DNA of 34,239 nt, taken from the IMG/VR virus record IMGVR_UViG_2917881069_000005, one strand, 5' to 3'. The notes below the pieces were generated by a model. That model ran no database searches, was not told where the DNA came from, and was given only the letters and a program-made list of their open reading frames with translations. This DNA comes from a virus. Its lineage: Duplodnaviria > Heunggongvirae > Uroviricota > Caudoviricetes. Below, piece by piece: positions 3,659 through 17,598 of this stretch (position 1 is the first letter of the stretch; each line of letters opens with the position of its first letter). A program made the position numbers and the translations under genes.

Positions 3659-4185
3659 TTGCGTAACTCCGATAACTCGTTAAAACGTTCCATAAACATC
3701 CAGTAGGCATGGCCCGGTGCCAGTGGAATCACTTTGAACATCTCTGTTGTCGGGATACCTTCCAGTACAGGCCAGAAAGAGCCATCATCAAGTCCGAGAT
3801 CGCGGCGTTCGGTTGCCAGCATAATGAGATCGGCATATTTCACTGGCGTGCTCATAACCGGAGGTAACCCGTATTTCTCACGGATTACGGCGTCTATTTT
3901 TTCTTCCATCCGTTTATAGTCAGGAAGAAGGCGTTTCAGTGGTGCGGGAATGTCCTGGCAATACGCTTCTGTTGCATCATGCATTAACGCTTCAAAAGCA
4001 AATTCCTGCGGCACCAGCTGGCTGCAAAGAACCGCATGTTGGGCGACGCTGTAGAAGTGTGAAAGATGACCGGCAAAGCGACAGATATTTGAAAGGGAAA
4101 CCGCGATATCGTTAATATCGATGTCGTCTTTATTTATCTTGTCATAATAAAAATGCTTCCCGGAAAAAGTTTTAATAAATGACAT
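3649..4185 (-). CDS. yfdR: HD-domain phosphohydrolase, YfdR-like
   Basis: H..H...D-type HD signature (HLSHFYSVAQHAVLCSQLV, EALMHDATEAY); start chosen at MSFIK (178 aa) with GGAGAA RBS; ORF track 3649..4212. Confidence 0.65.
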   Translation of the reverse strand: MSFIKTFSGKHFYYDKINKDDIDINDIAVSLSNICRFAGHLSHFYSVAQHAVLCSQLVPQEFAFEALMHDATEAYCQDIPAPLKRLLPDYKRMEEKIDAVIREKYGLPPVMSTPVKYADLIMLATERRDLGLDDGSFWPVLEGIPTTEMFKVIPLAPGHAYWMFMERFNELSELRKCA

Positions 4186-7794: not shown

Positions 7795-8627
7795 ACAGTT
7801 TAACGGCAAATAATCGTTTGTCGCAACAGCTGGTGGTCAGTGTCGCTGAACACCTGTTGTTACGGCATGAATGCAGATTACCAAATCACCTGGCTGTAAG
7901 TAACCACAGAGAACTTTACCTGACTGTGGGGGGCGAGTTGTGCAGGAACTTAACCGCTGGTTTCGTGACGGAAGAGGGCTTTATGTCCATGTTATTCGTT
8001 GGGAGCCAGAAACACAGCGCGTTATCTATCTTCGCAAAGACTACCCGCATGAGTGCTTTAGTCCTTTGTGGAAATTCAGGCGTGATTTTGTTGAGTGTGA
8101 AGGACCACCAGCACATTGATTCTGCCATTCCGGGACGTTACACTGTTCAGGCACCTTATAAAGCGGGTGCCGGGATTGGCGTCCTGGAATTGCATACGGC
8201 GACAATTGGCGCGTTAGCGTCTTTTTTGTTGCTACAACTCAGCTATACCCAAATTATGGTGGGCTGGGTGGGGGCACCGAAAGGTGCGCCGGTTTCCGTA
8301 TGCGCCGGTTACGCCAACCCTGCTCAGTTCACCACCAGCGAAATTGGCGTTTCCGGTGGTGGAAGTTATCCATTGCATACGGAGGCTGCCATCATGGCTA
8401 CTGTCCCAGCCCTCTCTCGTCTGAATGATGACGACTTACATAAACTCAGTTATGTAACAACTGCACTACGTGCTCTGCGCAAGGTAACTCTTTCGGATCC
8501 GCAGGCGCATCAGGTTCTGGTAGAAACCCTTCTTAACTTGCAGGCTGAACGTATTCGTCTGGCGGATAAGGCTAATTTTCATATTCACCGTCTCCTTAAT
8601 ATCAGCGGAGGGCATCGTCATGCTTAA
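7791..8627 (+). CDS. hypothetical protein
   Basis: 278-aa ORF; ATGA overlap with upstream stop suggests translational coupling; no domain recognised. Confidence 0.4.
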   Translation: MNSLTANNRLSQQLVVSVAEHLLLRHECRLPNHLAVSNHRELYLTVGGELCRNLTAGFVTEEGFMSMLFVGSQKHSALSIFAKTTRMSALVLCGNSGVILLSVKDHQHIDSAIPGRYTVQAPYKAGAGIGVLELHTATIGALASFLLLQLSYTQIMVGWVGAPKGAPVSVCAGYANPAQFTTSEIGVSGGGSYPLHTEAAIMATVPALSRLNDDDLHKLSYVTTALRALRKVTLSDPQAHQVLVETLLNLQAERIRLADKANFHIHRLLNISGGHRHA

Positions 8628-15945: not shown

Positions 15946-15973
15946 GGTGGCCACGTCAGGTGGCCTTTTTATT
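15946..15973 (+). terminator. rho-independent terminator between methyltransferase and holin
   Basis: GGCCAC-gtcag-GTGGCC followed by TTTTTATTT. Confidence 0.5.
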
Positions 15974-16009
15974 TCCATTACACAGCACCCGCATCTGCGA
16001 GGTGGGGTT

Positions 16010-16225
16010 ATGAAATCCATGGATAAGTTAACAACGGGTGTCGCCTATGGCACCTCAGCAGGTAGTGCCGGGTACTGGTTTTTACAGTTGCTCGATAAAG
16101 TCACGCCCTCACAGTGGGCGGCAATAGGTGTGCTGGGTAGTCTGGTATTTGGCTTGCTGACGTATCTGACAAACCTTTATTTCAAGATTAAAGAAGACAA
16201 GCGTAAGGCTGCACGGGGAGAGTAA
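16010..16225 (+). CDS. pinholin (phage 21 S21-like) with dual start
   Basis: MKSMDK dual-start motif; closely matches recalled S21 ([17 protein letters not shown]...[13 protein letters not shown]...[20 protein letters not shown]); ORF track 15947..16225. Confidence 0.75.
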
Positions 16226-16229
16226 TTCA

Positions 16230-16544
16230 ATGACTCAAAACTATGAACTGATTGTGAAAGGGATCCGCAATTTTGAGAATAAAGTTACGGTAACTGTAGC
16301 GTTACGGGACAAAAAACGCTTTGACGGTGAAATTTTTGACCTGGACATCTCGCTGGACCGTGTTGAAGGTGCCGCGCTGGAGTTTTATGAGGCAGCAGCC
16401 AGAAGGAGCATCAGACAGGTCTTCCTGGATGTTGCTGCCGGGTTATGTGAAGGGGACGAGCTGTTGCCAGAAACGCGCCCCTGTTCAGAGGCGCGGTATA
16501 CCATAAAAATTAACAGTTCTGATAACTCGATTAAGGGTTGTTAG
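16230..16544 (+). CDS. hypothetical protein inserted between holin and endolysin
   Basis: 104-aa ORF with GGAG upstream; no family recognised. Confidence 0.4.
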   Translation: MTQNYELIVKGIRNFENKVTVTVALRDKKRFDGEIFDLDISLDRVEGAALEFYEAAARRSIRQVFLDVAAGLCEGDELLPETRPCSEARYTIKINSSDNSIKGC

Positions 16545-16599
16545 CTTTTTGCAGTTGGCTTTCCAGTATCTTTCATTGGTAGCATCCTGATAAATATCC

Positions 16600-17598
16600 A
16601 TGAGCGCAAAAATCAAATACGGCCTGTCAGCTGCTGTTCTGGCGCTGATTGCTGCAGGCGCGTCTGCTCCTCAAATACTTGACCAGTTTCTGGATGAAAA
16701 AGAGGGTAACCACACTACGGCATACCGCGATGGTTCCGGTATATGGACCATCTGTCGTGGTGCCACAATGGTGGATGGTAAGCCCGTCATACCGGGAATG
16801 AAGCTGTCGAAGGAAAAATGCGACCAGGTTAACGCTATTGAACGTGATAAGGCGCTGGCATGGGTGGAGCGCAATATTAAAGTACCACTGACCGAACCAC
16901 AGAAAGCGGGTATAGCGTCATTTTGTCCCTATAACATTGGCCCCGGTAAGTGTTTCCCGTCGACGTTTTATAAGCGGCTGAATGCCGGTGATCGTAAGAG
17001 TGCATGCGAGGCGATTCGCTGGTGGATAAAAGATGGTGGGCGCGATTGCCGCATACGTTCAAATAACTGCTATGGACAGGTTATTCGTCGTGACCAGGAA
17101 AGCGCATTAGCCTGTTGGGGGGATAGATCAGTGAGCAGAGTCGCCGCGATTATTTATGCTCTGGTTATCTGCATCATCGTCTGCCTGTCGTGGGCGGTCA
17201 ATCATTACCGTGATAACGCCATCGCCTACAAAGAACAGCGTGATAAAAAAGTCAGTGAGCTGAAGCAGGCGACCGCCACCATTACTGACATGCAGCAACG
17301 CCAGCGTGCTGCTGATGTACTCGATGCTAAATACACGAAGGAGTTGGCTGATGCGAAAGCTGAAAATGATGCTCTTCGGCGCAAGCTTGATAATGGTGGT
17401 CGGGTGCTCGTCAAAGGAAAATGCTCTGTGCCATCCTCAGCCGAAACCTCCAGCGCCTCCGGCATGGGCAATGATGCCACCGTCGAACTCTCTCCAGTTG
17501 CTGGACGAAACGTTCTCGGTATCCGGGACGGAATCATCAGAGACCAGACAGCACTGAGAACGCTTCAGGAATATATCAGGACGCAATGCCTTCGATGA
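16600..17598 (+). CDS. SAR endolysin (T4-lysozyme-type, P21 R-like) whose frame runs without a stop into Rz
   Basis: N-terminal signal-anchor ([18 protein letters not shown]) and lysozyme core ([22 protein letters not shown]); no stop before Rz; G6 run at about 17117-17122. Confidence 0.7.
17131..17598 (+). CDS. Rz: i-spanin Rz
   Basis: [34 protein letters not shown]... nearly identical to recalled lambda Rz; GTG start preceded by GGGGGGA. Confidence 0.75.
17351..17557 (+). CDS. Rz1: o-spanin Rz1 (embedded in Rz, +1 frame)
   Basis: [19 protein letters not shown] lipobox, Pro-rich [12 protein letters not shown]; inside ORF 17306..17557. Confidence 0.7.

Follow-up and report, generated by a model that had tools for sequence, protein, structure and literature searches.

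What is the small gene that separates the holin gene from the endolysin gene in this lysis cassette, and what could it do there? It lies in a stretch of 34,239 nucleotides from a tailed phage (Caudoviricetes; IMG/VR record IMGVR_UViG_2917881069_000005), which is referred to here in its whole length as the window. A sequence-only reading of this DNA had taken the gene to be an unrecognised one, placed in a cassette type in which the holin is normally followed directly by the endolysin, and had proposed that it is co-transcribed with the lysis genes and could either modulate lysis timing or be cargo. Here, we trace the gene to its family, describe its junctions, its distribution and its product, and weigh the functions that can be proposed for it.

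Family Membership of the Gene

The gene occupies positions 16230-16544 on the plus strand and runs in the list of open reading frames (ORFs) from an ATG start to a TAG stop at 16542-16544, encoding 104 amino acids. Its product matched the Pfam family PF07041 (DUF1327) with an E-value of 8.7e-40 and 135.3 bits (cut-off 25), whereby residues 1-96 aligned to positions 1-90 of the 93 positions of the model. A second match, to PHROG 2735 (E 5e-55), covered the whole length of the ORF. Furthermore, the residues that are invariant or nearly so in two alignments reaching down to 33% identity (Y5, E6, L7, G47, L50, Y53, E54, A57, A69 and L72) are all found in the window protein. The ORF almost certainly belongs to the YdfR/DUF1327 family, and we refer to it as ydfR. 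NCBIfam gave no match for the ORF, and a sequence search of the PDB gave none at E ≤10.

In phage mEp460, the corresponding protein is gp55, which is annotated in RefSeq as "YdfR family protein" and shares 97% amino acid identity with the product of the ORF; the 1.75-kb lysis regions of mEp460 and the window are 99.2% identical at the DNA level. Two phages induced from ECOR13, PhiR55_1 and PhiR40_1, were found to be 98% identical to the window over 84% of its first 25 kb. Of 5426 complete E. coli genomes, 4254 (approximately 78%) contain matches to the DNA of the ORF, with the gene annotated as YdfR or DUF1327. In the Qin prophage of a K-12 derivative the gene order is essQ-ydfR-rrrQ-rzpQ, and ydfR of K-12 occupies the same position as the ORF in the window. 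The Pfam match, the mEp460 annotation, the matches in E. coli genomes and the Qin prophage therefore indicate that the gene is recognised and very common. It is a member of a catalogued family that is present in thousands of E. coli genomes, K-12 included, and the view of it as unrecognised is refuted.

YdfR of K-12 (P76160, Qin prophage) is of the same family and length class as the window protein, and its gene sits in the same slot, preceded by a P21-type holin gene and followed by one for an RrrQ-type lysozyme, with the same junction at the holin stop codon. The two differ in their tails, that of K-12 being unrelated to residues 74-104 of the window protein. They also differ downstream: in K-12 ydfR overlaps rrrQ, whereas the window has a 55-nt spacer with the remnant of a deleted convergent gene.

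Probable Coupling of ydfR to the Holin Gene

The gene directly upstream (16010-16225, plus strand) encodes a P21-type (pin)holin S of 71 amino acids with a dual start (MKSMDK). It matched PF04971, named "Bacteriophage P21 holin S" in Pfam (E 2e-35), as well as PHROG holin families. The sequence across the junction reads GGGGAGAG TAA TTCA ATG, with the ATG of ydfR four nucleotides after the holin stop (stop+4); there is therefore a strong Shine-Dalgarno (SD) element inside the 3' codons of the holin gene (GGGGAGAG, 16215-16222, plus strand). Exactly the same stop+4 spacing was found in 92 out of 92 loci. Between the hairpin described below and the ATG of ydfR (15966-16229), a consensus scan, which cannot prove absence, detected no promoter-like site. 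With no such site upstream and with the spacing kept throughout, the proposed co-transcription with the lysis genes is very probable, and the layout of the junction suggests that ydfR is very probably also translationally coupled to the holin gene. An AT-rich hairpin at 16519-16544 was considered as a terminator and rejected as weak, with only 3 GC pairs out of 10. An Rfam scan gave no match in or near the ORF.

Just before the holin gene, and 3' of a DNA methylase gene, there is a hairpin followed by a T-run (GGCCACGTCAGGTGGCC TTTTT, 15949-15965, plus strand). A homologous site in phage Ayreon is annotated as a terminator. The hairpin of the window is terminator-like and would be passed only by anti-terminated late transcription. 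The segment 14890-15965 of the window consists of the methylase gene, coding for an N6/N4 DNA methyltransferase (PF01555), and then the GC-rich hairpin with its T-run. The methyltransferase gene looks like cargo inserted between the Q region and the lysis genes, and mEp460 and Ayreon share it. Elsewhere in the window, Rfam matches above the gathering score were obtained for the Hfq-binding RNA isrK (8151-8227, plus strand, 61 bits) and, adjoining it, for a C4 antisense RNA (8252-8339, plus strand, 81 bits).

Downstream of ydfR lies the gene for an RrrQ-type (SAR-like) lysozyme (16600-17130, plus strand; PF00959, Phage_lysozyme). Its N-terminus is rich in Gly and Ala and moderately hydrophobic (Kyte-Doolittle 1.78), and the protein carries an E-X8-D-X5-T motif; these features are consistent with a SAR endolysin. 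The endolysin ATG is directly preceded by a leader without an SD element, TCCTGATAAATATCC (16585-16599, plus strand). An AU-rich leader of the form (A)TCCTGATAAATATC(C/T), likewise lacking an SD, is conserved in nearly all ydfR-bearing loci examined. Judging from this arrangement, the insertion of ydfR takes the holin-embedded SD away from the endolysin gene and may lower its translation.

The cassette is completed by Rz, the i-spanin gene (17131-17598, plus strand; PF03245), which starts with GTG in relatives, and by Rz1, the o-spanin gene embedded in it (17351-17557, plus strand; PF06085). In the window, an extra G in the G-run at about 17112-17117 fuses endolysin and Rz into a single ORF of 332 amino acids (16600-17598). 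In mEp460 and 46 other related loci the run is one G shorter, and R and Rz are separate, overlapping genes. Two explanations offer themselves for the fusion: a sequencing error in the homopolymer, or an inactivating frameshift private to the window. Despite it, Rz could start at its own GTG at 17131.

ydfR Is an Optional Insertion at the Junction of Holin and Endolysin

When a phage collection was searched by tblastn, DUF1327 was found in 101 records, compared to 438 records with a P21-type holin (approximately 23%). As the gene is absent from the remaining holin-bearing records, it must be regarded as accessory. The phages that carry it include H-19B (where the gene is unannotated), BP-4795 (ORF47), Stx2-86 and YYZ-2008, and Stx1 and Stx2c phages are among them. 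On E. coli chromosomes, the DNA matches of the two genes are of the same order of magnitude, with 6895 places for the holin and 7955 for ydfR. We fetched 100 loci, and at the lysis cassette the order holin-DUF1327-endolysin was constant. Thus, when conservation in related lysis cassettes was checked, as had been proposed along with the earlier reading, the ORF was found to be present with both its order and its spacing kept. The same counts bear on the notion that a holin directly followed by an endolysin is the norm and the arrangement in the window unusual, which fails for a large minority of phages and for most prophage copies in E. coli.

The direct arrangement does occur in Ayreon, Lambda_ev110 and the Stx2a phage PA28. 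PA28 has the same types of holin and endolysin and no ydfR; its endolysin ATG itself sits at stop+4 and is served by the holin-embedded SD (GGGGAGAG). In Ayreon and Lambda_ev110 the holin gene overlaps the gene for a different lysin of 165 amino acids. The junctions of these three phages therefore indicate that ydfR, together with the variable segment downstream of it, is a clean optional insertion between S and R. As the PA28 cassette illustrates, ydfR is dispensable for the basic cassette, and the suggestion that it could be cargo holds to the extent that the gene is accessory and cargo-like.

The family is confined to phages of Escherichia, Shigella and Salmonella. Searches of 5.8 billion proteins yielded 299 and 350 clusters of the family at 90% identity, and only 61 matches came from HMMER run exhaustively against 1.84 billion representatives. 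Two giant repetitive proteins among the latter (P0148 and P0151) are Ig/G2F-repeat proteins and were dismissed as compositional matches. A profile search with a diverse alignment of the core did not extend the family past DUF1327. Scanning 185,579 species genomes, we found eight loci, which belong to Escherichia/Shigella apart from two contigs of metagenome-assembled genomes (MAGs) labelled Veillonella and Bacillota. With a holin and an endolysin that share 94-96% identity with the E. coli ones, these two contigs are in our view E. coli prophage DNA that was binned wrongly.

In the Salmonella copies (L014-L017), ydfR lies downstream of a holin of a different family, PF16080. At about positions 3881-4000 of these loci, directly before ydfR, we observed what is left of a P21-type holin gene, degraded and internally deleted but with its 3' end and SD kept. 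The other holin family was rejected as an independent association, as the P21-type remnant still precedes ydfR. The sequence of the remnant is evidence of a holin replacement in which the junction between S21 and ydfR was preserved.

YdfR Consists of a Conserved Core and a Variable Tail

The product of the ORF is an acidic protein of 11.7 kDa (pI 5.0). Neither a membrane segment nor a signal peptide was found in it, the maximum Kyte-Doolittle(19) value being 0.75, and the protein is predicted to be soluble and cytoplasmic. Residues 1-73 (16230-16448, plus strand) form a core that is conserved in the alignments. In an AlphaFold2 model built with a diversified alignment, this core consists of antiparallel strands at residues 5-14, 18-27 and 34-43, followed by a single long helix at residues 50-73. 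The pLDDT is 79-92 across the core and below 50 from residue 76 onwards, and an earlier model agrees. Structure prediction, which had been suggested as a check, thus gave a confident beta-beta-beta-alpha core; a search for fold relatives returned no significant match. A dsRBD-type RNA-binding domain was considered and rejected, as its fold is alpha-beta-beta-beta-alpha and no significant structural match was obtained.

The tail of the window protein (residues 74-104; 16449-16541, plus strand) is variable in the alignments and modelled with low confidence. Beyond the core, the family has at least four unrelated classes of tail, with long forms of up to 287 amino acids.

Between diverged alleles, the dN/dS of the core (Nei-Gojobori) is 0.2-0.4, and the ORF is therefore coding, yet under weaker constraint than its neighbours. 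Within the allele class of the window, dN/dS is 0.39-0.60 for ydfR, which is three to four times as high as in the holin (0.11) and endolysin (0.10) genes; the tail alone has a value of 0.25 in this class. Accordingly, ydfR is under moderate purifying selection. Considering this selection together with the PF07041 match and the SD at 16215-16222, the earlier claim of a genuine extra gene with its own Shine-Dalgarno between holin and endolysin is borne out, and ORF 16230-16544 is confirmed as a real gene, more than a chance reading frame. Frameshifted or truncated copies with aberrant tails are common, e.g., in Shigella flexneri (L012, 4001-4390) and in many database proteins such as P0122-P0127, P0141 and P0150. 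Such frequent breakage is consistent with the decay of cryptic prophages and with dispensability.

Convergent Genes Accompany DUF1327 in Several Late-Operon Slots

The segment between the core of ydfR and the endolysin gene often carries a small gene on the minus strand, whose identity varies with the class of the tail. In the window, only a remnant of such a gene is left. Alignment to locus L034 showed that 39 nt (16545-16583, minus strand) correspond to approximately the last 13 codons of a convergent gene of 79 amino acids (phrog_21218), the rest of which was removed by a deletion of about 312 bp. A minus-strand ORF at 16485-16616, listed mechanically, spans this remnant. The intact gene is present in L034 (3312-3551) and in the Salmonella loci L014-L017 (4309-4548), and the short form with the partner deleted was found in 69 of 80 closely related, window-type IMG/VR loci. 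The partner genes fall into phrog_21218, 2411, 2572 and 1853, all annotated in PHROG as of unknown function. Homology among them was considered and not accepted, as the partner proteins show at best marginal similarity to one another.

Three distant DUF1327 homologs (33-49% identity) are located in other slots: L013 (4001-4285) between the lambda-like tail genes I and J, L101 (449-667) between the likewise lambda-like tail genes M and L, and L102 (503-718) directly after Rz. All three point forward, and a small convergent gene comes next in every case. This recurring combination suggests that DUF1327 and a convergent gene form a mobile unit that targets late operons.

A Possible Link to RNase E

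The only experimental data on the family come from K-12. A bacterial two-hybrid screen yielded residues 1-72 of YdfR on three occasions (PMC13232886, RNA Biol 2026), and this fragment showed an interaction with RNase E as well as a weaker one with RNase G; a fusion of the full-length protein scored only with Rne1-597 (PMC13232886). When Strep-YdfR was purified from lysates, Rne1-598 co-eluted, and the eluates held DNase-resistant nucleic acid, for which the authors allow that RNA was retained by a contaminant (PMC13232886). As the co-purification was done without nuclease treatment, RNA could bridge YdfR and Rne. Overexpression of YdfR in K-12 was not toxic and changed very few transcripts (PMC13232886), which argues against YdfR as a global modulator of RNase E. 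The gene is silent in K-12 during normal growth (PMC13232886). In the same study its neighbours were called "genes of unknown function"; they are the holin, endolysin and spanin genes. The link to RNase E rests on one study of overexpressed, tagged K-12 YdfR.

Over the core, the window protein and K-12 YdfR are identical in 60 of 72 residues (83%), and the differences are mostly conservative. Taking position and homology together, we tentatively favor, at less than even chances, the reading that the window protein is a late-expressed, cytoplasmic accessory factor that binds RNase E or RNA. According to this proposal, YdfR would be produced from the Q-dependent late transcript and only in the late phase of lytic growth, and its translation would be coupled to that of the pinholin via the SD in the 3' end of the holin gene. 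As the homology to K-12 suggests, its core would attach in the cytoplasm to the catalytic, N-terminal half of RNase E, to RNA, or to both. This binding might adjust late RNA decay, e.g., by changing how stable the long lysis and morphogenesis transcript is or how it is processed; a direct action of YdfR on the lysis proteins of the membrane is not part of the proposal. As a side effect in cis, the endolysin gene would be left with its SD-less, AU-rich leader whenever ydfR is present. That forward orientation in late operons is kept even by the distant homologs in other slots speaks for the RNase E reading. The higher dN/dS and the many frameshifted copies are as expected of a dispensable gene and count against it. 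The complete chain, in which YdfR docks on the catalytic half of RNase E or on late RNA, tunes the lysis and morphogenesis transcript and thereby lysis timing and yield, and is possibly the half that survives of a mobile module of two genes, is unlikely to hold in all its parts.

Several known proteins offer comparisons. T4 Srd and the host protein RapZ, proposed as analogues, are small proteins that contact Rne's N-terminal half, and Srd is a phage-encoded protein that changes RNA decay during infection, as summarised in PMC13232886. We found no relationship in sequence or fold between YdfR and either of them, and YdfR differs from both in that few transcripts are altered on its overexpression and in that it would be a late gene of a temperate phage. 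Dip (gp37) of phiKZ, an inhibitor of the RNA degradosome, is also among the closest known systems.

Alternative Explanations

YdfR might instead be a trans-acting modulator of lysis timing, as the sequence-only reading had suggested. It would bind either the pinholin, at its charged cytoplasmic C-tail, or the SAR endolysin, at the short N-terminus (MSAKIK...) that contains Lys and lies in the cytoplasm, and would delay or sharpen triggering. Regulation of holins or SAR endolysins from the cytoplasm has precedents. T4 RIII is described as a cytoplasmic antiholin that also touches RNA metabolism via ribosomal protein S1 and RegB (PMC9409239), and Mu gp25, the releasin (DUF2730), as a small accessory protein acting on a SAR endolysin (PMC9239132); on this description, both act from the cytoplasmic side. 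Moreover, ydfR is seldom met outside the lysis cassette, and its translation is coupled to that of the holin gene. In Salmonella it kept the 3' end and SD of the P21-type holin gene after the PF16080 holin had taken over, and the partner endolysin is of the RrrQ type in every lysis-cassette locus examined. However, the same types of holin and endolysin work without ydfR in Stx2a phages, just about 23% of the holin-bearing phage records carry it, and the distant homologs between tail genes M/L and I/J lie away from holin and endolysin. YdfR has no sequence match to T4 RIII or Mu gp25 and, unlike releasin, no membrane segment; with a maximum Kyte-Doolittle value of 0.75 it showed no hydrophobic segment, and no DUF2730 match was found. 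Pfam, PHROG and NCBIfam gave only DUF1327 and PHROGs of unknown function, no lysis-category family, and no membership in the known lysis-regulator families S21-71, T4 RI/RIII or P1 LydB. Finally, overexpression in K-12 caused no growth or envelope phenotype, under conditions in which holin and endolysin are unexpressed (PMC13232886), and the experiments on K-12 YdfR point towards RNase E and RNA instead of the lysis proteins. Considering both sides, we regard a direct effect on the lysis proteins as improbable. An envelope screen (PMC3879167) was discounted as functional evidence, as ydfR appears in it only in supplementary hit tables, and replacement of ydfR by a kan cassette could drive the downstream lysozyme gene.

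A second alternative is that DUF1327 and the convergent gene make up a mobile cargo module serving conflicts between phages or between phage and host, for instance in exclusion, in anti-defence, or as a toxin/immunity-like pair with a polymorphic C-tail, and that the copy in the window is decayed and has lost its partner. The convergent gene follows DUF1327 in four late-operon slots: between S and R (L034, L006, L007, L100 and the Salmonella loci L014-L017), after Rz (L102), between M and L (L101) and between I and J (L013). The class of the C-tail switches along with the partner gene, and the window retains the 39-nt remnant of the 79-aa partner. The partners belong to recurring PHROGs (21218, 2411, 2572 and 1853), two of which were found in four records of the phage collection: Perceval and vB_EcoS-783R2, in which the partner adjoins ydfR, and Chlobot and phiSTEC1575-Stx2k; adjacency is established for the first two only. 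Most copies, however, are solo, since 69 of the 80 window-type IMG/VR loci as well as K-12 and H-19B lack the partner while the tail is intact, which makes an obligatory toxin/immunity pair hard to reconcile with the data. A search of the window protein and three long-form relatives against the PADLOC-DB defence models (E ≤0.1) matched 0 families, and no toxin/immunity Pfam domain was found. The partner proteins are only marginally similar to one another, and no promoter of its own and no deviant GC content were found for ydfR. A conflict module seems unlikely to us.

Lambdoid morons offer a further comparison. Like bor and lom, ydfR is optional between essential late genes, polymorphic in its presence and absence, and set in mosaic flanks. 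Classic morons bring a promoter and a terminator with them and are active in the lysogen. In contrast, ydfR has no promoter-like site, is coupled to the holin gene and is ordinary in GC content.

Rather doubtful, finally, is a near-neutral passenger or purely cis-acting spacer kept by tight linkage to the essential lysis genes, any effect of which would arise solely because the endolysin gene is moved away from the SD inside the holin gene: relaxed constraint (0.39-0.60 in the allele class of the window against 0.10-0.11 for the neighbours), frequent frameshifted and truncated copies, presence/absence polymorphism and an SD-less endolysin leader in every ydfR-bearing locus would fit, but dN/dS is clearly below 1 between alleles with dS above 1.5, the motifs YEL and EGxxLExYE are still present in homologs with as little as 33-40% identity and at other genomic slots, and a specific protein interaction has been reported (PMC13232886).

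Significance

For a specialist in lambdoid phages, the locus holds nothing surprising: it contains a widespread lysis-cassette gene, for which there is now a concrete RNase E hypothesis. Nevertheless, roughly four E. coli genomes out of five have the gene, inside a very thoroughly studied type of cassette. Added here are the fixed coupling to the holin gene, the SD-less endolysin leader and the recurring module of DUF1327 and a convergent gene in several late-operon slots. Combining the reported binding to RNase E with the position in the lysis cassette leads to a testable hypothesis, namely that late RNA decay is controlled by a protein encoded in the lysis cassette. If this is true, YdfR would be a lambdoid counterpart of T4 Srd, residing in the lysis cassettes of prophages in approximately 78% of E. 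coli genomes.
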